Positions 7,319 through 49,549 of a stretch of 64,000 nucleotides of DNA are shown here, piece by piece. Made by a program: the position numbers and the translations under genes. Every line of letters starts with the position of its first letter. Positions within the stretch are counted from its first letter, which is position 1. The notes beneath the pieces were generated by a model. It was not told the origin of the DNA. It made no database searches and saw nothing but the letters and a program-made list of their open reading frames with translations. The DNA comes from a virus: the IMG/VR virus record IMGVR_UViG_3300044729_003379, positions 1 to 64,000 of that record; one strand, written 5' to 3'.

Positions 7319-8247
7319 ATTTTAAATGCGTAGAATGCGGAGCCTCCTTTAAAAAAGAGGCGGGTTTACACATCCATGTAAAGATTCATGGAGGAGTCGC
7401 CGCATACTATCAAAAAAACTTTCCAAATAGAGATCGTTTAGATGGTTCCTTGATAAACTTTTCCAATCCAGAACAATACCTTGGTGAGTGTTTTAATTCT
7501 CTAAAAACAAGGAACACCTTTTTAAAAGGATGTTCTAGAAAAGAAGGGAGGGATGTTGTCATTCATGAATTAAGCGCAGACAAAAAGAAATATGGACTTA
7601 CCCACCTTCCTTCTCAAAATTACTACATTCTCAAGAAAAGAGCAGGACTGATTACTTGTGAAAACTTCTTCGAATCAAAGAAAGAACTGGCAGATAATTT
7701 GGGTTTAGATCTTTTCTATGACAAACCTCTTCCAGAGAACTTCTGGACCGTCTCTGAAGAGGAATTAAACAAGATAGAAATCCACAGAGACACAAGAGAA
7801 CAAAAACCCTTTTCTTTTTCTAATTACATCGTAAATAAATTGGATTTTGGTGATTACTGCGCGGGAGGAATTCATTATAACAAAACTTTTATAGACAGGA
7901 AATCGCCAACCGATTTTAAGGGAACCTTTGGGGTTGGTTTTGAGAGATTTACAAAAGAAGTCGAAAGGGCTAAATTATTCAATAGTTTTCTTTTTGTTGT
8001 TGTAGAGTCTTCTATAACGGAAATAATTCGTTCAAATCTTTTAGGAAAATATGCTACAAATTTATCATACGCATTCTCTAATGTAAGAAAGTTATGTTTA
8101 AAATATCCAGAAGTAATTCAATTTGTCTTTTGTAAGACAAGAGAAGATGCACAAGATATAACTAAAAGAATTCTATACTTTGGAATAGATTTGCATAAAT
8201 GTGATATTCAATATTATTTAGACAAAAAATATGTGGGAAAAAGGTAA
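7315..8247 (+). CDS. C2H2 zinc finger plus ERCC4/XPF-type nuclease
   Basis: CxxC-x12-HxxxH; DTREQKP, GDY, DRKS motifs. Confidence 0.8.
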   Translation: MNFKCVECGASFKKEAGLHIHVKIHGGVAAYYQKNFPNRDRLDGSLINFSNPEQYLGECFNSLKTRNTFLKGCSRKEGRDVVIHELSADKKKYGLTHLPSQNYYILKKRAGLITCENFFESKKELADNLGLDLFYDKPLPENFWTVSEEELNKIEIHRDTREQKPFSFSNYIVNKLDFGDYCAGGIHYNKTFIDRKSPTDFKGTFGVGFERFTKEVERAKLFNSFLFVVVESSITEIIRSNLLGKYATNLSYAFSNVRKLCLKYPEVIQFVFCKTREDAQDITKRILYFGIDLHKCDIQYYLDKKYVGKR

Positions 8248-10138
8248 ACAAGGCTTTAGAATGGATTATTCGGCAAGCAAAACAAATGCCGAAATTCTGG
8301 AAAAAGAGGGATGGCTTGAGCAAGACGAAGCTAGCGTCCTTCTTTATAAATTCTTAAGAAATAACATAACATTTGCTACCGAATTCTTTCTTGGTATTAA
8401 ATTGTTTCCATTCCAAGCTATTTTGATAAAAGCTTTATTTATTTCAGATTATACAATGCACGTTCTGGCGCGAGGCATGTCAAAAACATTCTCGACGGCT
8501 ATTTATTTGATTTTGGAACTCTTATTCAACCAAGGTTCCAACATAGGGGTTATTGCAGGAACGTTTCGACAGTCTAAAATGATTTTCACAAAAATTGAAG
8601 ATATCTTATCTAAACCAGCGGCAAAGCTTGCGATGGATTGTATAGGAACCAAAAACTACATCCAAAAAGGGACCGATCAATGGACATTGAAAATAGGAAG
8701 AAGTAGGGCTATTGCCCTTCCTCTTGCCAATGGGGAAAGACTGCGAGGCTTTCGTTTTAATCGAATTGTTATTGATGAGTTTTTGACAATGCCAGAAAAG
8801 ATTTTTAACGAAATTATCATGCCCTTCTTGGGTGTTATTGAAAATCCAACGCAACGAAAAGAACTTCGGGATTTGGAGACAAGATTAATTGCCCAAGGAA
8901 AGATGCAAGAGTCAGAAAGATTCGTTTGGCCAAATAACAAACTCATCCTTCTTTCTTCTCCTTCTTTCAAATTTGAATATATGTATAAGCTGTATAAACA
9001 GTTTATTGACCTCATAATGGGTCAACATGATTCTCAAAAATTTAATAGAGAAGAGGCTGGAGCAATATCCGCTTATCGGGCAGTATTTCAGCTTTCTTAT
9101 GATCTTGCTCCTCCAGAACTTTACGACCAAAATCTTCTCGATCAAGCAAGAGCAACAATGAGTAAGGCTCAATTCGACAGAGAGTTTGGCGCACAGTTTG
9201 GCGACGAAGGAGATTCTTATTTCAAAATGAGTCGAATGATGCAATGCACCATTCCAGAAGGAGAATTCCCTGCTGTTGAAATTATTGGAGACCCTGCGGC
9301 AGAATATATTTTATCCCTTGACCCTTCTTGGTCCGAAAGTGAGGAGGCAGACTTTTTCAGTATGCATGTGGGCAAGATTTTAAAACCAGAGAACAAAGTA
9401 GCAATCGTTCATTCTTTTGCTTTAACTGGTCAACCCCTAAAGGTCTATATGACCTATTTTCATTATCTTTATACTCACTTTAATATTGTAGGCTTGATTG
9501 GAGATAGGAACGGCGGTTTACAATTCATAAGCGCATGTAACGAGAGTGAGCTTTTCAAGAATTCTAAAATACAAATTAAGTTTGTGGAAGGAGAGTTTGA
9601 TAAACCAGAAGATTATCACACAGATTTGTTGGCTCTTAAAAATTCAATAAATACAGAAGATCATAAGATTTGTTTTCTTAGAAATCCATCCTCTTCTTGG
9701 ATTAGAACAGCAAATGAAATGCTGCAAGCAAGCATTGATCATAAGCGTATTTTATTTGGTTCTGGGGCATTTTTGGGAGACAAACACTTTGAAGCACAAA
9801 GCAAGGCTAAGATTCCAATTGCCGATTTAAAATGGGAACCAGAATATAGGGCTTCTTCAGAAGATGCTTGTAAGGTGGATTTAATTGATTATTGCAAACA
9901 AAATATTGAACTTACCAAAACTCAAACATCTAATATTGAAGTTACGACAAGCCCCCAAGGAACTCAATCCTTTGACCTTCCTCTTCACATGAGAAAACAA
10001 AGAGGGCCAAATAGACCAAGAAAAGACTTATACTCGTCTTTGGTTCTTTTAAATTGGTGGGCAAAGGTTTATTTTGATTCCTTGGAAGTTAAAGAAGAGA
10101 AAAGGGTTGTTTCTACATTTGTTCCTTTTGCTATCTGA
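8231..10138 (+). CDS. terL: Terminase large subunit
   Basis: ARGMSKT Walker A, LRG, IVIDEF Walker B, LSLDP nuclease motif; precedes portal. Confidence 0.88.
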   Translation: MWEKGKQGFRMDYSASKTNAEILEKEGWLEQDEASVLLYKFLRNNITFATEFFLGIKLFPFQAILIKALFISDYTMHVLARGMSKTFSTAIYLILELLFNQGSNIGVIAGTFRQSKMIFTKIEDILSKPAAKLAMDCIGTKNYIQKGTDQWTLKIGRSRAIALPLANGERLRGFRFNRIVIDEFLTMPEKIFNEIIMPFLGVIENPTQRKELRDLETRLIAQGKMQESERFVWPNNKLILLSSPSFKFEYMYKLYKQFIDLIMGQHDSQKFNREEAGAISAYRAVFQLSYDLAPPELYDQNLLDQARATMSKAQFDREFGAQFGDEGDSYFKMSRMMQCTIPEGEFPAVEIIGDPAAEYILSLDPSWSESEEADFFSMHVGKILKPENKVAIVHSFALTGQPLKVYMTYFHYLYTHFNIVGLIGDRNGGLQFISACNESELFKNSKIQIKFVEGEFDKPEDYHTDLLALKNSINTEDHKICFLRNPSSSWIRTANEMLQASIDHKRILFGSGAFLGDKHFEAQSKAKIPIADLKWEPEYRASSEDACKVDLIDYCKQNIELTKTQTSNIEVTTSPQGTQSFDLPLHMRKQRGPNRPRKDLYSSLVLLNWWAKVYFDSLEVKEEKRVVSTFVPFAI

Positions 10139-20217: not shown

Positions 20218-20988
20218 ATGAAAGATTTATACTCGTTTACGGTTTCTATTGTTTCTCCTATTTCTAAAAAGAAGGAGAAGGTTGAGGTTGTCATCAAGAA
20301 GCCCAATCATTCGATGATTGAAAACGCGGAATTCTTTTATGCATCAAAGTTTAACGAGTATTTGAATGCAGGATTTCTTTCGAAAGCAATGGTTCAGAAA
20401 AAGCTTTCTGATCTTGGTGGTATCCTTGGAAAGGGAGAAGAAGAAAACATCACCAATGAAATTACTAATATCTTTGATGCCCAAAGGATTGTGGAATTCT
20501 TCTCTTCTTCAAAAGAAGCGGATCTTTCGGAAGAACAAAAAAGTAAACTCGATAAAGCAAAGAAGCTCATCGCCAAATCAAGAAAGACTTTGACGGAATA
20601 TAATGTTCATGCCGCATCTATGTTTAATCAAACGGCAGATGTTAAAGCTCAAGAGAAATTAATTAAGTGGTTTGCCCTTTTCTGTTCTTTTTACAGAGAG
20701 ACTGTTGGAGATAAAACTAATGATTTCGAAATCTTCGAAGGGGCGACTCTTAAGGAAAAGGAAGAGTTTTACAACAAAATTCTTGACGAAGAATTTGACC
20801 AATCTGATGTTGATTTGAACAGAAAGGCTTTAATTATTGGAGAAGCCGCGAGAACAATTGGTCAAGTTATTGCTATTTGGTATAATGGATTAGGGTCTGA
20901 CCAGAAAGAAATCAAGAGACAACTTGATGCTTTAGAAAAAGAAGAAGAGCTTAATGAGGATATTATTAACAGCATTACCGATGAATGA
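20218..20988 (+). CDS. Tail assembly chaperone-like protein
   Basis: Between tube and TMP; TTGATT-17-TATAAT upstream. Confidence 0.55.
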   Translation: MKDLYSFTVSIVSPISKKKEKVEVVIKKPNHSMIENAEFFYASKFNEYLNAGFLSKAMVQKKLSDLGGILGKGEEENITNEITNIFDAQRIVEFFSSSKEADLSEEQKSKLDKAKKLIAKSRKTLTEYNVHAASMFNQTADVKAQEKLIKWFALFCSFYRETVGDKTNDFEIFEGATLKEKEEFYNKILDEEFDQSDVDLNRKALIIGEAARTIGQVIAIWYNGLGSDQKEIKRQLDALEKEEELNEDIINSITDE

Positions 20989-21851
20989 AAGACATTCATT
21001 ATATTCTTCTTGCTGAAATAGTTCAAAAATATTCAGTATTAGAGCTTCCCAAAAAAAGCATATACTTCAAGCATCCTTCTTTAAAAGATTCGTTCAGAGA
21101 AGCCTTGGGAAGGAAAGAGTTTCTAAAGGAAGCCGAAATGATCGGCTTGAAAAGCCGCGAAGAACTTTTAAATGTGGCTTATCAAAGCGGTCGTTGGACA
21201 AAGGAAAAGGATGCCCTTCTTGATGATCTTGAGTTTGCTATTAATAGCAGAAACAAAGTTCTCAAAAAGATAGAAGACAATAACATGAAAAAAGAAATCC
21301 TTTCTCAAATTGAGAGGGATTCGACAGAATTAAATGCTTTATCGAAAGAAAAAAGGGCATTGACTTCTGCTTCAAAAGAGGTTTTCATAGAACAAAAACT
21401 GATTAAAAAAAGCTTTTCTTCAAGGCTCTTTTATGATTTAGATTTCTTGGAACCAATTGATATTGAAGACTTGAACGCTTGTTACAACCAATATATAGAA
21501 AAGGTTGTATCTTTGAGTGATCGCGATAATTTGTTATGGGTTTCTTTTATTCCTGATTTTATTGATTTGTTTATTTTCAATACAGATGTATCTTGTATTT
21601 TCGACGAAAAGGGTATAAATCTAACAATTTTCCAAAAGAACGTTTTGTCTTATGGTAGTCTTCTTGTAACAAAGCTTAGAAACAGCTATAATATGCCAGA
21701 TTCCATAAGGAATAATCCCATAAAAATATACGAGTGGAGCGAAGGTTCTTCTAAGTCGAAAAGTGTAGATGACTCTGACTTTAACATTAGAGAAAAGGTT
21801 AAGAAGTCCGGTGGATTGGAAAAAATGAAACCCGAGGACAAATTGACATAA
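20985..21851 (+). CDS. Tail assembly chaperone-like protein 2
   Basis: Synteny before TMP. Confidence 0.5.
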   Translation: MKDIHYILLAEIVQKYSVLELPKKSIYFKHPSLKDSFREALGRKEFLKEAEMIGLKSREELLNVAYQSGRWTKEKDALLDDLEFAINSRNKVLKKIEDNNMKKEILSQIERDSTELNALSKEKRALTSASKEVFIEQKLIKKSFSSRLFYDLDFLEPIDIEDLNACYNQYIEKVVSLSDRDNLLWVSFIPDFIDLFIFNTDVSCIFDEKGINLTIFQKNVLSYGSLLVTKLRNSYNMPDSIRNNPIKIYEWSEGSSKSKSVDDSDFNIREKVKKSGGLEKMKPEDKLT

Positions 21852-21881: not shown

Positions 21882-24800
21882 ATGGCAACGGCTCCAGTTA
21901 ATGTAAATGCCAATTTAAACTTTAATCCACAAAGTTTAAATGCAGCAAGTAGGCAGGTTCAATCTGCCTTTGGGAATATTAATATTCCCACCAAACCTCT
22001 TGCGGCGTTTAATAATTCTTTAGGAAGAATTACTGGACAAGCCTCTGAATTTGACAAATCAATCAATGCAGCTACTGCGCGTGTGTTCGCCTTCGGCGCG
22101 GCTGTTACCATCATTAATGGTATCTCCTCTTCTTTTAAATCTCTTGTTTCGGCGACGATAGAGGTTGAAAAGAGAATCACTGAAATTGGGGCAGTTCTTC
22201 AAACAACATCTTCCCAATTAAATGAATTCAAAAATGAAATTTTCGATGTTGCCAAAAATACTGGTCAAGCATTTTCTACCGTAGCCGACGCTGCTCAAGA
22301 ATTAGCAAGACAGGGTTTGTCGGCAGAAGAAACAGCGAAAAGATTAAATGCCTCGCTTATCTTAACAAGAATTTCTGGATTGGATGCAGAAGATTCTGTT
22401 AAAGCTTTAACTTCGGCTATTAACGGATTTGCTTCCGCTGGTTTATCTGCTGAACAAATTGTTAATAAATTGGTTGCCGTCGATACGGCCTTTGCCGTTT
22501 CCGCGAAAGACCTTGCAGACGGTTTCTCCCGCGCAGGTTCTACCGCAGAAGATGCTGGGGTTTCTTTTGATGAACTTCTTGGCTTAATTACTTCCGTTCA
22601 ACAAACGACTGCGAGAGGTGGTGCCGTTATTGGCAACGCCTTTAAATCTATTTTTGCAAGACTTTCAAGAGGAACCGTTATTGAAGATTTGAAAGCCCTT
22701 GGTGTTGAAATTGATCAAAGTCAAACAGGTGTTCAAAAATTACAAGCCCTCGCAACGGCTCTTCAAGGGATTTCTGATCCGACTCAAGCTAATGCAATTA
22801 AAGAACTTGCTGGTGGAGTTTTCCAAATTAACGTTGTTTCTGCTGCTTTAAAAGATTTATCAAATGAATCTTCTATTTTTGCACAAGCATCAAGAACGGC
22901 TGGAGAAGCTTCAAATGAAGCCTTCCAGAAAAATGCTGAATTGAATAAAACATTAGCTGCTCAATTTAATTCCTTAATTCAAGGATTAACTGAGTTGGGT
23001 TCGAAGATCGGGGATCTTTCTATTGCTCCTGTTATAGAAAAACTCCTCACGGGGGCAAATCAACTTATCGAAATCTTAAACAAGGTTTTCGATCCAGAGC
23101 AAGGCAACAAATTCATTCAAGGGTTTTTTAAAGGAATTGGTAATTTCTTGGCTGGTCCGGGTTTGATTTTGATTTCTGCGGCTTTCTTTAAATTGTTTCA
23201 ACTTGTGGCCAAGTTTGCAAAGGAAGGTATTTCAGACTTGTTTAAAATTGGAACCGAACAAGAGAAGATTAAAAATATTGAAGCAGGAATCGTCTCCCTT
23301 CTTCAAAAAGACGCTAATTTAAGACAGGTTCTTGCTAGTGCAACTGCTACTCAAGCCCAAAAAGAACAAGCAGTTATCAACGCTATTAAACAAGAAAATA
23401 TTCTCTTGACTCAACAGCAACAGATATTAAATAGTATTGCTTCTGCTGCAAGAACCGCTGGTGTTGGAGGATTTACTCCTAGTGGTGGGTTTTCTAAACG
23501 AAGTGGTAAAGGTAAATTTGCTGCTGGGTTTATGGAAGAAGAGGCAATGGCCAAGGCTTTAGGTGCTTCTAGTTCTGTAAAAGCCAAATATGGAAAAGGA
23601 ACAATTGATGGACAAAAGTTCATCATGAATAATCAAGAGGTTGAAATTCCAAACTTTGGTGGTGGAAAAGATAGTGCGGTTATTCCTACTTATGCTAGTG
23701 GTTTTGTTCCGAATTTTAATAAAAGGCCAAGACCTGTAAAAGTATCTTATAATCAACCATTAACAAAAAATGAAATAGAAGAATTTGGTATTAAAAAAGA
23801 CGAGATCGACAGCTTTAACAAAAAAATTAATTCTTTATCTGGCAAGTCATGGACATCACTTGATAATATCACGAAGAATAGCAAAAATCAAACAGATATA
23901 GCTGCGGCAAAAATTCTTTTAGCAAGAAGAGGCAAACAAAAAGAACAGAATCTGGAACAAGCTTTTGTTGGCTCTGCATTAAAACCATTAGATATAATGG
24001 CTCCAGAATTTGGATATTTAATTCCAGAATTCAAAAGATCACAGGAAATCGACCCAACCCAAAAATATAATACAAAAGATAAATGGAAGGGTAAGGTGGT
24101 TCATTTTAATTTATTAAACACACCTCTTCGCGGACCTTTTCCAGAAAAAATAATAGAATCAGAAAATAAAGATGAAGACATAGCTGATTCTGTTATGAAC
24201 AAGATAATTAGCGAAACCGTAAAATATGCCGACAAAATTGGCGATCCAATATTTCAAACGCCTAATTTAAGCGCAATAAAAAAGGGTCTTGGAGAAGGAG
24301 GCAATAGAGGTGCTTATGGAGCCGTTCTAGGCGCTGCTGGTGCAGCATTTGAAGCAGCTATGGTAGCTGGGCTAGGTATTGATAATGCAAATGTGCCAAA
24401 ACTTGGAGAAGCAGATTTTGATGTTGAAAATGTTTCTCCTTCGTTAGAAAAGTTATTCAATATATCAAATATATCTAGGGCAGATTTTAAAGTGAAAGAC
24501 TCAGAAACGGGTATTTCAAGTTTCGGAAGAAAGATTTTAAATACAGGAAAATATAATAATGTTTTAAAAGATTATCTAAATTTACCAGACGAAAACGAAA
24601 AAGAAACTTCCAAAAGGCCAAGAAAGAAGAACAGGACAAGAGCATCTGGTTTCATCCCAAATTTTAACTCCTTAAACAAAGGAGTTCCTATTTCTCAAAT
24701 TCGCGCACATTTTGATGAATTCGGAAATCCAATTGCCGTAACCAATAAACGAGATGAACCAAATGGATTAAAAGATGCAATAAAGAGAGAGAAAAGAGGG

Positions 24801-27701
24801 GAGAGTATGTTTGCTGGGGGTTTTATTCCTAACTTTGCCGTTCCTAAAAAGGTTAAATTAAAATCGAGAAATGCAGGACAGGCAACAGGGGTTCCAGAAG
24901 AAAGTGGTGGAGTTTTTGGCAAAAGCGCGGTAACTGGATTAGCTATTTCTTCTCTTATTTCTGTTGGAATAAATCCTCTTACTGAATCTTTAAAAATAAG
25001 CTCAGAACAAATCCAAAAAGAAATAGATAAAAGAGACGAGTTAAATTCAAAATTAGATGAAGAGAAGCAAAAAGAAAAGCAAGACCCGTCTGTAATTAAG
25101 GATTTAGAAAAACAGATTGAATCTTTGAATAAGTCTGTTTCAACAATGGAGTCAACAAATGCCTCTATAGAAAAAACGGTTGGGACAATCGCTGGGGTTG
25201 CTAATATTGCATCAACGTTAAGTGGGTTTATTGATTTTAAAAAATCATTTACAAAAATAGGCCCAGCTTTATCAAGAGGCGCTCCTAGCCTCGGATTAGC
25301 TGCGGCAGGTGGCGCTGGCGGTGCTGGTGGTGCTGCTGCTGGGACAGGATTGCTTGGGGTTGGTGCTGGAACTGTTGTTGGTTTAGGCGCTGCTGCTTTA
25401 GCTGTAGGAGTCGGGATCGGAGAGGCGATTAAATTTGTGGTAGGTTCAGAAATTGAAAAAGCAGAACAAAAAGCCAATGCCCCATTTCAAAAAGCTAGAG
25501 AAATGTCTGGCGTTGGTTTTAGAGCAGAAAGATTTGCTCAAAAACAAAAAGAACTTGCCGATTTACAAAGACAACGCCAAGAATTAGATCAACAAAGAGT
25601 TGATATTAAAAATTCAGTAAATAGAACGGTTGTAAATCCTTATGCAGAAAGAGAGATTTTCGATAAAACAAACATCTTAGGAACAGAAGGAATTGTCGAT
25701 TTTACTAAAGAAGTTAATTCCTTGTCTCAAGGAATGGATGATATTTCAAAAATGCAAATGTCTAGAAAACCTCAGACTTTGCAGGGAGAAATAAGAACAG
25801 CAAGAATGTTTAGCGATAAACAATTTGAAAGACAAAAAGAAGAAAGATCCTTAGAATTTAGAAGCAAGCAAGTTTCTTCTTCTCTTGAATCTGGAAAGAT
25901 TCTTGAACAATTAATTCCAAAGAAAGTTGATATTCCTACAAATGTTACCGATGATGTTTTAAAGGGTTTAGAAAAACAATTATCTGAGGAATCTCAGAAG
26001 TTCCAAGATACAGAAAAGGTTTCAAAATTGGGTTCAGAAATTCAAAAATTATATGGAGATTTGGCTAAGATTCCTTATGGAATTAGAGATCCAAAATTTA
26101 ATGAAGAAGTCGCTCTTAAACAAAAACAAATAGAAGTAAAAACAGAACAACAAAGAAAAGAATCAGTAAAACCATTACTAGCAGAAAGCGATGAAAAAAG
26201 AATAGCTGATCTCCAAAAACAAATCGAAGCAAGAAAATCTGTCGAAACAAGAAAACAAGCTGAGTCCAGAAAAACTGGATTAATGCAAGATGTTACAAAA
26301 TCATTCGGTAATTTATTGAATATTGATTTTAATAAATTTAAGAACTCTGATGGTAACTTTACGTCGCAATCTATAAACGATTTTTCTGCGGCACAAAAAG
26401 ATGCACTCAAAGACCTTGATAGCAAAGTTGCTTCTTTGGAAGCAGCCTTGGGCGAAACAGCAACGGAAGATCAAAAGAAAACAAACGCAGAATTTATACA
26501 AAAGTATAAAGAAAACGCACAACAATTAGCAAAAGACCAATCAGACGCCTTTAGACAAGCTTCAATTGCTGATTTTCAAAATAGACAAAATATATTAAGA
26601 CAAGAACAGGAGCTTCTCAATAAATTTATTGATGATTTTAATGCCAGCTTCGGACAAAATCTTGATTCGGTAATTTCTAGCTTAGATAATCTCAGAAATG
26701 CAACACCAATTGCTCAGGCTAGAGATTTCTCTATAGGAAAGATTGGACAGGGAAGTATTACTAGAAAACCCGGAAGTGCAACTTTAGGGGGTGGAACCTT
26801 GGGTCAAAGGTCAGACATTTTTGCATCTAGACTTAACACAGTTAAACAGTTTGAAAGCCAATTTTCTCAATCTCAATTATCTGGATTGCTTGACCCAGTT
26901 CAACAAGCCAAGTTTAGAAGTAATTTAGCTGGACAAACATTGGGTGGTGGATCAGTTTCTGCCATACAACAGGACTTAATCACACCAGCGGCCCAACAAT
27001 TAATTGGAAAAGACGGAGTTCTTTCTCAGGTTTCTAAAACAGCAAACGCAGGTGCATTAAATCAAGGCGCAGGTTTACAGCTTGAAAACCTTATCAAAGG
27101 ATTAAAGGGGTTAGCTGGACAGACTAAAGATAACTCCCTTCTTCAAAAAATATCTGAACTCGAAAAACTTAGAGGAGGAAGTGCTTCTGATATTGTCAGC
27201 GGAATTTCTGGACTTGATCTTGATAAATTCAAATCTCTTGGAGAATCTGGTCAATTATCTGGTCAACAGCTTCAAATAGAAGCCTTATCTGGCATAACTG
27301 GTTTGGGGAAAATGTTAAACGGAGAAGCCCTTCTTAATGAACAGCAAAAGTTAACACAATCTAATCAAGAATTAACAAAGGCAATTCAATCATTAAGCGA
27401 TTTCCTCAAAGAAAGAGGGCTTAGTCCTCTTGACGAAAAGGGAAATGTTAAATCTCCATCTATTGAAGTTGTTGAATCAGAGGAAGCAAATAAAGAGCAA
27501 ATTGCCGCAATTAAACAAAAGGCGAAAGAACTCGATGACGCGATTATTATTGCTACTCAAAGTGTTCGTTCTTCAAAAGACGCCTATATAGAGGCTTCTA
27601 AAGCATATTCTGCGCTTGTTCAAAATATAACAAATAATCCAATTCCATCAGGAAAACCGGGTTCTACTGGAGAACCAGATCCGAATACGCAACCAAGATA
27701 A
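21882..27701 (+). CDS. Tail tape measure protein
   Basis: 1939 aa; TP901-type N-terminal core (ELARQG, DLADGFSRAG, IGNAFKSI); coiled coils; Gly/Ala hydrophobic segment. Confidence 0.92.
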   Translation: MATAPVNVNANLNFNPQSLNAASRQVQSAFGNINIPTKPLAAFNNSLGRITGQASEFDKSINAATARVFAFGAAVTIINGISSSFKSLVSATIEVEKRITEIGAVLQTTSSQLNEFKNEIFDVAKNTGQAFSTVADAAQELARQGLSAEETAKRLNASLILTRISGLDAEDSVKALTSAINGFASAGLSAEQIVNKLVAVDTAFAVSAKDLADGFSRAGSTAEDAGVSFDELLGLITSVQQTTARGGAVIGNAFKSIFARLSRGTVIEDLKALGVEIDQSQTGVQKLQALATALQGISDPTQANAIKELAGGVFQINVVSAALKDLSNESSIFAQASRTAGEASNEAFQKNAELNKTLAAQFNSLIQGLTELGSKIGDLSIAPVIEKLLTGANQLIEILNKVFDPEQGNKFIQGFFKGIGNFLAGPGLILISAAFFKLFQLVAKFAKEGISDLFKIGTEQEKIKNIEAGIVSLLQKDANLRQVLASATATQAQKEQAVINAIKQENILLTQQQQILNSIASAARTAGVGGFTPSGGFSKRSGKGKFAAGFMEEEAMAKALGASSSVKAKYGKGTIDGQKFIMNNQEVEIPNFGGGKDSAVIPTYASGFVPNFNKRPRPVKVSYNQPLTKNEIEEFGIKKDEIDSFNKKINSLSGKSWTSLDNITKNSKNQTDIAAAKILLARRGKQKEQNLEQAFVGSALKPLDIMAPEFGYLIPEFKRSQEIDPTQKYNTKDKWKGKVVHFNLLNTPLRGPFPEKIIESENKDEDIADSVMNKIISETVKYADKIGDPIFQTPNLSAIKKGLGEGGNRGAYGAVLGAAGAAFEAAMVAGLGIDNANVPKLGEADFDVENVSPSLEKLFNISNISRADFKVKDSETGISSFGRKILNTGKYNNVLKDYLNLPDENEKETSKRPRKKNRTRASGFIPNFNSLNKGVPISQIRAHFDEFGNPIAVTNKRDEPNGLKDAIKREKRGESMFAGGFIPNFAVPKKVKLKSRNAGQATGVPEESGGVFGKSAVTGLAISSLISVGINPLTESLKISSEQIQKEIDKRDELNSKLDEEKQKEKQDPSVIKDLEKQIESLNKSVSTMESTNASIEKTVGTIAGVANIASTLSGFIDFKKSFTKIGPALSRGAPSLGLAAAGGAGGAGGAAAGTGLLGVGAGTVVGLGAAALAVGVGIGEAIKFVVGSEIEKAEQKANAPFQKAREMSGVGFRAERFAQKQKELADLQRQRQELDQQRVDIKNSVNRTVVNPYAEREIFDKTNILGTEGIVDFTKEVNSLSQGMDDISKMQMSRKPQTLQGEIRTARMFSDKQFERQKEERSLEFRSKQVSSSLESGKILEQLIPKKVDIPTNVTDDVLKGLEKQLSEESQKFQDTEKVSKLGSEIQKLYGDLAKIPYGIRDPKFNEEVALKQKQIEVKTEQQRKESVKPLLAESDEKRIADLQKQIEARKSVETRKQAESRKTGLMQDVTKSFGNLLNIDFNKFKNSDGNFTSQSINDFSAAQKDALKDLDSKVASLEAALGETATEDQKKTNAEFIQKYKENAQQLAKDQSDAFRQASIADFQNRQNILRQEQELLNKFIDDFNASFGQNLDSVISSLDNLRNATPIAQARDFSIGKIGQGSITRKPGSATLGGGTLGQRSDIFASRLNTVKQFESQFSQSQLSGLLDPVQQAKFRSNLAGQTLGGGSVSAIQQDLITPAAQQLIGKDGVLSQVSKTANAGALNQGAGLQLENLIKGLKGLAGQTKDNSLLQKISELEKLRGGSASDIVSGISGLDLDKFKSLGESGQLSGQQLQIEALSGITGLGKMLNGEALLNEQQKLTQSNQELTKAIQSLSDFLKERGLSPLDEKGNVKSPSIEVVESEEANKEQIAAIKQKAKELDDAIIIATQSVRSSKDAYIEASKAYSALVQNITNNPIPSGKPGSTGEPDPNTQPR

Positions 27702-36296: not shown

Positions 36297-37072
36297 TATT
36301 TAAAAACGTGGTCTTTCCATCCAAACGGAACTTCTCCGTTTTCTGGCCAATTTCCAGAAATAGCCTTTTCCCATTGCTCATCGCTTAGTGGGGGAAAAGA
36401 GTATTTTTCTTTTGGAGTTTTTAAACAGATGAGTTGTTTGGTGTCTGTTCTGTGTTTCCACATTGATCCGTCTGGATTTGTTCTAATGCTCCACTTTCCT
36501 CTATCTATAAATGGTGGGACTTTTTGGGAGCCGATTTCATATGTAACAGAAATATAAGAAAGGCCACGCTCTTCGATGTTTTCTTGAACGCATTGTTCAG
36601 TCCATTTTATATGATCCCAAGGACCGGGACCACCAATGCTTTTTGGAATACTGTTATAAAAATCTACAGAAATAAACTGCGCCCTCTCACTGTATTTACC
36701 GTGTCCTTGATCTCCTGAGAGGTCGATGTGTGAAATTTTATATTTCTGTAATAGATTTTCAAATTCTTCTATTTCTTTTTGTGTTATTTTTGTATAGAGA
36801 AGATGATCAACTTGAATATAAAATGCGTATTTGCTTTTGCATTGAGCAAATAATTGTATTGTTCCTGCTCCACAACCAACATTTGTTGTGTTATTAATTA
36901 CCTCATCTTGATCCGACAACAACCCTTCTTCTTTAAAAGAGTCTGCATATCTTTCCCCGCCATTATTTAATATGGTAATCTTCTTGTCAAACAAGGCGTT
37001 TACTTTTAACGAAAACAACAAATCTCTCAATTCATTTTCTCTATTAAAATCAAGAATTAATATTTCAGTCAT
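36284..37072 (-). CDS. Glycosyltransferase, GT-A/GT2-like
   Basis: ILILDFNR...L.SL, ILNNG, NVGCGAG, YAFYIQVD. Confidence 0.65.
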   Translation of the reverse strand: MTEILILDFNRENELRDLLFSLKVNALFDKKITILNNGGERYADSFKEEGLLSDQDEVINNTTNVGCGAGTIQLFAQCKSKYAFYIQVDHLLYTKITQKEIEEFENLLQKYKISHIDLSGDQGHGKYSERAQFISVDFYNSIPKSIGGPGPWDHIKWTEQCVQENIEERGLSYISVTYEIGSQKVPPFIDRGKWSIRTNPDGSMWKHRTDTKQLICLKTPKEKYSFPPLSDEQWEKAISGNWPENGEVPFGWKDHVFKYWED

Positions 37073-48784: not shown

Positions 48785-49549
48785 ATGGCATCAAAAAAAT
48801 CTACCGTAGATAATTCCTTTGGACCCAATCTTTATAAAAGAGACGATAATGGGTTGCTTGAAAACATTCAATACCATTTTAACGAAGACGGAAGCGTTAA
48901 TTGGAGAAAGATGATCAGCGATGAACATCTTTATGTTAACAAAGATAGATTTCCAGATGGAAATGTTCCAAATTCCGTAGATGGGCTTGATGATTCAAAA
49001 TTAATTATCAAGCTTTCTGGAATTAAAGAATTAGCTAAATTAAGGGGTTTTAGTGATGTTTCTTATCAGGTCAAGGGGGAGAGATTTAACCCAGTAGTCG
49101 TTTGTAGTATTCGCTTCATTCCAAACTATGAGACAGGATTTAAGGAGGTTTGCTTTCAAGATGTCGCGGCGGCTTCTTCTGAGAACACAGATTCCTTTGG
49201 TCAAAGATTTCTTGAATCAATTGCAACAAACAGAGCATTTGTTCGATGTGTTCGGAATTTCTTAAATATTCATATTGTTGGACAAGATGAGTTGCCCAAG
49301 GGAGACGGCAAACCCAACGCCATTCAAGAAATCAAATACGGAATGGGTCCGCTTGATACTCTACATAATTCTCTTTCTTTAATTGGAATTTCTGATTTTG
49401 ATGGATTTCAAGAACTATTAAGAGGATTTTGGAAGGATGGGTTATACAAAAACCCAGAAGTAAAAAACTGGAGTAGATTTGAAGATATTCCACCAAAAGA
49501 ATGTAGAACACTAATCTCCATCATAAAAGGTGCAAAAATTGGATTTTAA
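48785..49549 (+). CDS. Putative ssDNA-annealing protein, Rad52/Sak-like
   Basis: ESIATNRAFVRCVRNFLNI...DEL. Confidence 0.45.
   Translation: MASKKSTVDNSFGPNLYKRDDNGLLENIQYHFNEDGSVNWRKMISDEHLYVNKDRFPDGNVPNSVDGLDDSKLIIKLSGIKELAKLRGFSDVSYQVKGERFNPVVVCSIRFIPNYETGFKEVCFQDVAAASSENTDSFGQRFLESIATNRAFVRCVRNFLNIHIVGQDELPKGDGKPNAIQEIKYGMGPLDTLHNSLSLIGISDFDGFQELLRGFWKDGLYKNPEVKNWSRFEDIPPKECRTLISIIKGAKIGF

Follow-up and report, generated by a model that had tools for sequence, protein, structure and literature searches.

We analysed 64,000 nucleotides of DNA from an uncultured marine phage (the first 64 kb of the 73.7-kb IMG/VR contig IMGVR_UViG_3300044729_003379; henceforth the window) and found that its tape measure protein (TMP) is organised around a short recurrent peptide, which we refer to as the junction peptide. 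The middle of this 1939-amino-acid (aa) protein, designated P0001, is a cassette region (aa 546-986) in which three modules, M0, then S1, then S2, are fenced by copies of the peptide. The same peptide is present in one to 13 or more copies per protein in hundreds of TMPs of uncultured phages, and almost only there. In this wider family the peptide is the exact point at which entire modules are gained, lost, moved or swapped for others. We tentatively propose that it may be a determinant of cleavage during TMP maturation or ejection, by analogy with the mapped cut in the TMP of phage T5, and we weigh this proposal below against the possibility that the peptide is an uncut joint.

The junction peptide within P0001 and across its family

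The strict form of the peptide, A-x-G-F-[IV]-P-N-F, is found three times in P0001 (copies 1 to 3; Table 1), together with two degenerate strings, i.e., FAAGF (copy 0) and EIPNF (aa 588-592, with IPNF at nucleotide (nt) 23646), the latter lying inside M0. All motif strings listed in an earlier, sequence-only reading of the window are present where that reading had placed them, in frame with the open reading frame (ORF) 21882..27701 (+). At the amino-acid composition of P0001, the pattern G[FY][IV]PN[FY] is expected by chance 1.1e-4 times per protein, against three observed occurrences; among 20,000 shuffles a single copy appeared in one, and two or more copies in none. As synonymous codons differ among the three P0001 copies, these are kept at the protein level and do not derive from a recent DNA repeat. 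Elsewhere in the window, the looser pattern [FYW][IVLM]PN[FY] gave one further match (RFIPNY, nt 49115), in an unrelated ORF.

A word-indexed search with aa 520-1010 of P0001 recovered 186 TMP-sized proteins, nearly all of them with 3-8 copies of the peptide. Scanning IMG/VR with the peptide pattern matched at least 598 stretches, 274 of which are relatives, and a degenerate-DNA scan of the same database for A-x-G-F-I-P-N-F-A matched at least 119; among 80 loci fetched from the latter scan, 79 matches lay in giant ORFs, 75 of which match our TMP set. In the 57 related loci bearing the strict motif, it was never seen outside the TMP ORF. The consensus of 803 distinct copies (in %) was A79/S14 - x - G - F70/Y22 - I65/V31 - P - N92 - F74/Y25 - A65/N10, where G and P were fixed by the search pattern. 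Residues -9 to -3 upstream of the motif were basic and acid-poor. The asparagine was replaced by R or K in ~5% of copies, with a minority form G-[YN]-M-P-[KR]-[FY]. The motif strings were not found in the literature on phage tail proteins, the sole match being an unrelated human serum peptide; the junction peptide is real, widespread and undescribed in the literature searched.

One locus is unusual in its number of copies. In L150 (IMGVR_UViG_3300035204_001874), a minus-strand ORF of at least 3071 aa has 13 strict and up to 18 loose copies fencing many small acidic modules, and includes a tandem duplicate (aa 365-425 and 434-498). This giant ORF had no BLAST match to the TMP set.

Gain, loss and replacement of modules at the junction peptide

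We compared P0001 with ~27 close homologues and found strongly uneven segment identity: 78-84% in the N-terminal 500 aa, up to 88% in M0, 29-41% in S1, 67-80% in S2 and 23-33% in the C-terminal half. Mapped in 20-aa windows against three of these proteins (P0003, P0004 and P0008), identity was 70-95% just before copy 1, 10-35% across aa 621-800 and at most 60% in the rest of S1; it was back to 80-90% at aa 921, within copy 2, stayed at 70-90% up to copy 3, and then dropped to 10-45%. The fall at copy 1 itself took identity from 85-95% to 15-30%.

Pairs of TMPs differing in content placed the changes at copies of the peptide. Specifically, the L071 protein has two extra modules (aa 635-1103) and another one (aa 1609-1716) in comparison with L068, each bounded by copies of the peptide. 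Between P0111 and P0113, with flanks that are 94%, 83% and 77% identical, a module bearing a Walker A motif is found in slot 1 of one protein and slot 5 of the other. In a set of 212 TMPs we then examined the indels, 90 aa or longer, that distinguish proteins sharing at least 40% identity. Indel ends lay at a median of 4.5-5.5 aa from a copy of the peptide, compared with 114 aa for random positions, and in 24 of the 34 events both ends were within 20 aa of a copy. The sequence-only reading had proposed that the motifs mark module boundaries and that the segments between them are swappable. Because the identity cliffs fall at the copies and the indel ends lie near them, both proposals are supported: the backbone and the small modules are strongly conserved, the slot is hypervariable, and modules come and go at copies of the peptide. 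The high divergence of S1 could nevertheless stem in part from fast evolution in place rather than from exchange.

Several further observations concern individual modules. S2 is either 49-54 aa or 71 aa long (67-80% and 34-43% identical, respectively, to the S2 of the window, 24666-24809); these two classes are distributed independently of N-terminal identity, and the small module is therefore exchanged too. The Walker A module (G-P-[AS]-G-[SA]-G-K-S-T; 154-181 aa) is located in slot 1 in three TMPs (L026:8277-8738 (+); P0111, aa 595-751; P0115, aa 595-751) and in slot 5 in P0113 (aa 1262-1442), and has sub-threshold Pfam matches to P-loop families (best E 0.003). The slot module at aa 614-831 of P0090, which starts D-G-D-S-L-K-V ... 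R-L-E-S-V-D-A-I-E-S, looks staphylococcal-nuclease-like by eye. Pfam recognised no module in P0060, P0061, P0070, P0090, P0102, P0111 or P0113, nor in the TMPs of L053, L068 and L071; with isolated modules of L026, L068 and L071 it again recognised none, the only hits being the sub-threshold Walker A matches in L026. No gene was naturally split at the peptide, TMP ORFs being continuous in all loci examined. Two apparent splits (P0165/P0087 and P0076/P0163) affect the C-terminal half and resemble breaks in the assembly.

Architecture of the cassette region

We modelled aa 520-1010 with AlphaFold2 (58-sequence alignment; mean predicted local distance difference test score (pLDDT) 72.7). In this model the three strict copies (aa 604-612, 920-928 and 977-986) lie in stretches with pLDDT below 50 which separate three folded blocks. 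S1 (aa 613-919) is predicted as a folded alpha/beta unit (pLDDT mostly 75-90) and in this differs from the C-terminal half, which is long and helical. The earlier description of a globular-looking segment of ~307 aa, unlike the coiled-coil remainder, thus agrees with the model; its basic flanks (NKRPRP... and ...KRPRKKNRTR) and the strings GAAFE (aa 820-824), ADFDV (844-848) and ADFK (867-870) were likewise confirmed within the segment. Of the two smaller modules, S2 has two invariant residues, N955 and E959, and homology between M0 and S2 was not detectable with hhalign (P 0.56). At the start of the S1 coding sequence, 27 nt (23761-23787, +) match at 93% identity the opposite strand of a gene 13 kb downstream (36760-36786, -; E 4.7e-5 within the genome), possibly by chance.

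A possible cleavage determinant or an uncut joint

We infer that the junction peptide works at the protein level as a handling signal of each module. The likeliest role, which still falls short of being probable, is that it directs cleavage during maturation or ejection, as the cut site of T5 pb2 does. Such a cut, made in the tail or as the protein is ejected, would release S1 from the ruler, and S1 could then precede the DNA into the host and act in its envelope or cytoplasm. A more far-reaching version, which we regard as rather unlikely, is that the peptide is a reiterated T5-type maturation site and that these TMPs are polyproteins, each fenced module being cut free and entering the host ahead of the DNA.

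The only TMPs known to be cut are those of T5 and lambda; in neither has the catalyst been identified, nor has the position of the lambda cut been mapped (PMC12617516). In T5, pb2 is cut after R1127 into pb2* and pb2C, which separates its enzyme domain (PMC10038345). The site, as read from the T5 record, is ...S-F-V-P-R/A-E-G-G-M-M... (slash, cut). The tripeptide [FY][IVLM]P occurs a single time in the 1219 residues of pb2, at P4-P2 of the mapped cut; the probability that such a tripeptide falls between -8 and +5 of any fixed site is 0.0016. In lambda, a Gly-rich region of gpH is cut once the tail has assembled, giving gpH* and gpHC (PMC12617516; PMC10721106), and we found the strings F-A-T-G-G-F and Y-A-T-G-G-Y (aa 733 and 778) in the region that is removed.

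Several results weigh against a cleavage role. The likeness between the T5 site and the peptide extends over no more than 3-5 residues, and the register in which the two align is ambiguous, as F-V-P-R/ fits the second half of the motif and R/A-x-G-G the first. Hidden Markov models (HMMs) of M0 and S2 left T5 pb2 and lambda gpH undetected in hmmsearch (with negative bit scores for gpH), and TIGR01541, the lambda C-terminal module, had no match in P0001 at E ≤ 1. Neither megablast nor tblastn against 50,697 phage records found a cultured relative. Among the scanned ORFs neighbouring the TMP gene, PHROG and Pfam searches gave no protease candidate. Finally, gp96 of Thermus phage P23-45 contains an active RNA polymerase inside an uncut TMP (PMC10770324).

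The last two points also favour a different explanation, namely that the peptide is a joint or docking element which is never cut. It would bind a conserved partner (the tail-tube lumen, a tail assembly chaperone or a host factor) or re-register the TMP oligomer around the inserts, and the modules would work while fused, as the enzyme domain of gp96 does in a protein that is full-size in virions (PMC10770324). Eight or nine residues, rich in Gly, Pro and aromatics and set in disordered linkers, make a typical docking motif, and conservation of the peptide exceeds what most protease sites need. The ~5% of copies with R or K in place of N point the same way, since asparagine chemistry cannot then be essential. 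Against this explanation, the core tripeptide coincides with the only TMP cut that has been mapped, that of T5 pb2, and a monomer AlphaFold2 model cannot reveal binding. We consider the uncut joint possible without being probable, and slightly less likely than cleavage.

S1 and the nuclease question

If the peptide is a cleavage determinant, S1 would be the first candidate for a released module. A phmmer search with S1 against 1.84 billion representative sequences gave 60 matches, at the equivalent position of TMP-sized proteins, and an S1-core HMM was detected in 217 of 292 motif-bearing TMPs, the remainder having other content in similar-sized slots. S1 is thus the commonest slot occupant and, because all relatives were found inside TMPs, a TMP-only domain. 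Short matches that might have been free-standing S1 proteins turned out to be TMP fragments or an assembly chimera: P0150 (160 aa) apparently joins a YchF-like C-terminal sequence to the S1 core at a shared G-x-L-E-K-G-F. In three TMPs (P0041, P0046 and P0047) S1 is immediately followed by a second slot module that is weakly related to it (HMM E ~1e-9) and is probably an old tandem paralogue; the second module of P0060 is related by BLAST but went undetected by the S1 HMM.

The sequence-only reading had found the GAAFE...ADFDV...ADFK series reminiscent of a PD-(D/E)XK core, which would make S1 a nuclease-type effector delivered with the DNA. The residues themselves proved real and conserved. 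The S1 core follows the pattern G..GA..G..GAAF[E/D] ... G-D-F-D-[VIA] ... L-F ... [D/E]-x-K-x-S, and over 107 modules the acidic and Lys positions of this set were kept in 101-107, with spacings of 23 and 21 residues: position 824 is E in 88 and D in 13 (101 in total), D847 is present in 101, position 868 is D in 89 and E in 14 (103) and K870 is present in all 107; the neighbouring G820 is present in 106. In an AlphaFold2 model of the core (226 aa, pLDDT 79, predicted template modelling score 0.74), the acidic residue 824 is part of a helix, whereas strand elements contain D847 and D-x-K. S1-type modules are also strongly basic, with a median isoelectric point of 9.8.

The fold, by contrast, found no support. 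The predicted order of the core (five N-terminal strands, three helices, a bridge, a helix, a strand and three helices) is not the canonical alpha-beta-beta-beta-alpha-beta, as it is without a strand (beta1) between the E-bearing helix and D847 and without one (beta4) after the D-x-K strand. Pfam matches of P0001 at E ≤ 1 were limited to PhageMin_Tail and a sub-threshold BrkB, NCBIfam had no match in aa 520-1010, and PF04471 (Mrr_cat) had none in the genome at E ≤ 10. Searches of PDB sequences with S1, by phmmer and with an alignment profile, gave no match within the module. Foldseek found nothing with E < 1 in PDB with the 226-aa core model, and no relative of S1 in PDB or BFVD with the 491-aa model of aa 520-1010. 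A wide VIA-align comparison of the core model with 48,161 chains reached a best Z of 4.5 (none at 5 or above), and VIA-align of the 491-aa and 226-aa models returned only short helical pieces with Z ≤ 6. Structure prediction together with these sequence and fold searches therefore provides no PD-(D/E)XK relative for S1, which was moreover never found free-standing, and we consider the nuclease assignment improbable. The likeliest putative activity of S1 is binding of a polyanion, whether nucleic acid or membrane; catalysis is possible.

A membrane-active S1 is, in our judgement, more doubtful still. On this view the Gly/Ala-rich helix (aa 810-834) would stay hidden inside the soluble fold until ejection and then enter the host membrane, with a structural role for the conserved charged residues. 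The helix has small residues every 3-4 positions (G810, G813, G817 and G820 in P0001), of which G810, G813 and G820 are kept in 97-106 of 107 modules, and a Kyte-Doolittle maximum of 1.72; TMPs form trans-envelope channels (PMC12617516, PMC10038345), and a basic surface would suit anionic lipids. However, it is a single, marginally hydrophobic helix that bears a conserved acidic residue, stronger hydrophobic segments are found elsewhere in the TMP (Table 1), and VIA-align gave no fold match to pore formers.

It is barely credible that the peptide has no function in the protein and is there only because the DNA encoding it supplies microhomology at which recombination can proceed in frame: module gain and loss do occur at the copies, but synonymous codons differ and yet the amino acids are near-invariant over 803 copies in proteins otherwise 25-35% identical, which means selection on the peptide and not on the DNA.

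The tape measure gene and its neighbourhood

P0001, which the sequence-only reading had called a tape measure protein, is a TP901-type TMP. It matches Pfam PF10145 (PhageMin_Tail) at aa 124-311 (E 3.7e-26; 92.7 bits, cut-off 33.2), NCBIfam TIGR01760 (tape_meas_TP901) at aa 80-402 (E 1.7e-31; 109.5 bits, cut-off 28.8) and 15 PHROG TMP families. The protein is very long, mostly helical and contains hydrophobic segments, and its gene lies in a tail block, with the terminase upstream and large tail-type ORFs downstream. PDB profile matches of the long, helical C-terminal half were limited to coiled-coil proteins and TMP chains. The hydrophobic segment at aa 1150-1192 may be, by analogy, the kind of stretch that forms a membrane channel in other TMPs. 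Coordinates of the features are collected in Table 1.

Table 1. Features of the tape measure gene, with positions in P0001 and in the window.
Feature	Residues (aa)	Position (nt)	Strand	Basis and remarks
TMP gene (P0001)	1939 in total	21882..27701	+	Single open frame; PF10145, TIGR01760 and PHROG matches
Conserved TP901-type N-terminal TMP domain	80-402	22119..23087	+	TIGR01760; aa 1-500 78-84% identical in ~27 homologues
Hydrophobic segment	418-448	23133..23225	+	Kyte-Doolittle maximum 1.83 (19-aa window)
Junction copy 0, degenerate, FAAGF	546-550	23517..23531	+	Full AAGFIPNFA at the same place in some relatives
M0, small conserved beta-rich module	551-603	23532..23690	+	AlphaFold2 strands at model residues 49-83, pLDDT 83-92; up to 88% identical in relatives
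Junction copy 1, YASGFVPNF	604-612	23691..23717	+	AlphaFold2 pLDDT <50; identity cliff
S1, slot module	613-919	23718..24638	+	Variable basic helical N-terminal part and conserved alpha/beta core
Most conserved part of S1	795-890	24264..24551	+	Gly/Ala-rich helix with E824, then D847, F859, D868-x-K870
Junction copy 2, RASGFIPNF	920-928	24639..24665	+	AlphaFold2 pLDDT <50; identity returns here
S2, small conserved module, hairpin and helix	929-976	24666..24809	+	AlphaFold2; 67-80% identical in relatives of the 49-54-aa type
Junction copy 3, FAGGFIPNFA	977-986	24810..24839	+	AlphaFold2 pLDDT <50; second identity cliff just after
Gly-rich hydrophobic segment	1150-1192	25329..25457	+	Kyte-Doolittle maximum 2.02; analogy with the hydrophobic stretch of T5 pb2

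The contig has a CheckV completeness of 51% and a G+C content of ~35%; the only host hint, Flavobacteriales, comes from contigs binned into metagenome-assembled genomes. The phage lineage is very divergent. Ten large structural ORFs around the TMP gene (10186-35426; portal-, capsid- and tail-sized) had no PHROG match and almost no Pfam match, the weak Pfam match of the terminase (8231-10138) being the only one among the ORFs scanned; the same PHROG and Pfam scan gave no chaperone candidate. The ORF directly upstream of the TMP gene (20985-21851, +; 288 aa), in the position of a tail assembly chaperone, has an ATGA overlap with the previous ORF and a sub-threshold Pfam match to SpoIISA_toxin (E 0.0024; 18 bits, cut-off 27).

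Implications and comparison with known systems

How TMPs are cut, and what besides a channel they carry into the cell, is poorly understood. The family described here provides a sharply defined peptide of nine residues at every module border, with up to 13 or more copies per protein, across hundreds of phages. Both claims made from the sequence, a nuclease assignment and proteolytic processing, are hypotheses. Should the peptide be a cut or hand-off signal, TMP processing would become directly testable with a recombinant fragment, and dozens of uncharacterised TMP-only domains, S1 first, would be candidate injected proteins. Were the polyprotein reading true, these marine phages would possess an exchangeable set of virion-borne effectors, and a sequence rule for TMP processing would be defined. 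If the peptide is only a joint, it would still show how nature builds folded domains into a tail ruler, and so amount to a design rule.

Four kinds of TMP invite comparison. TMPs with embedded peptidoglycan hydrolase motifs exist in mycobacteriophage TM4 and others; like P0001, they are ruler proteins hosting extra functional segments, but their inserts come from known enzyme families and are not known to show either a fence of conserved peptides or cassette exchange. In lambda gpH, the [FY]-A-T-G-G-[FY] strings resemble the [FY]-A-x-G-F of P0001; gpH differs in having no inserted module, and neither TIGR01541 nor the M0 and S2 HMMs link it to P0001. P23-45 gp96 (PMC10770324) likewise has a folded enzyme inside the TMP, which presumably reaches the host by way of the tail, but it is full-length in virions, both the activity and the fold of its cargo are proven, and a reiterated fence peptide has not been described for it. 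The last case is T5 pb2, which differs from P0001 in having one site near its C-terminus and a recognisable metallopeptidase motif, in place of three to five copies in the first half of the protein and modules whose folds are unrecognised; the modules flanking the two sites are without detectable homology. Both, however, are TMPs that combine a hydrophobic stretch with a functional module embedded in the ruler and set apart from it at a defined site (the cut itself being known in T5 only), and the [FY]-[IV]-P and A-x-G of the junction peptide recur at the T5 site.

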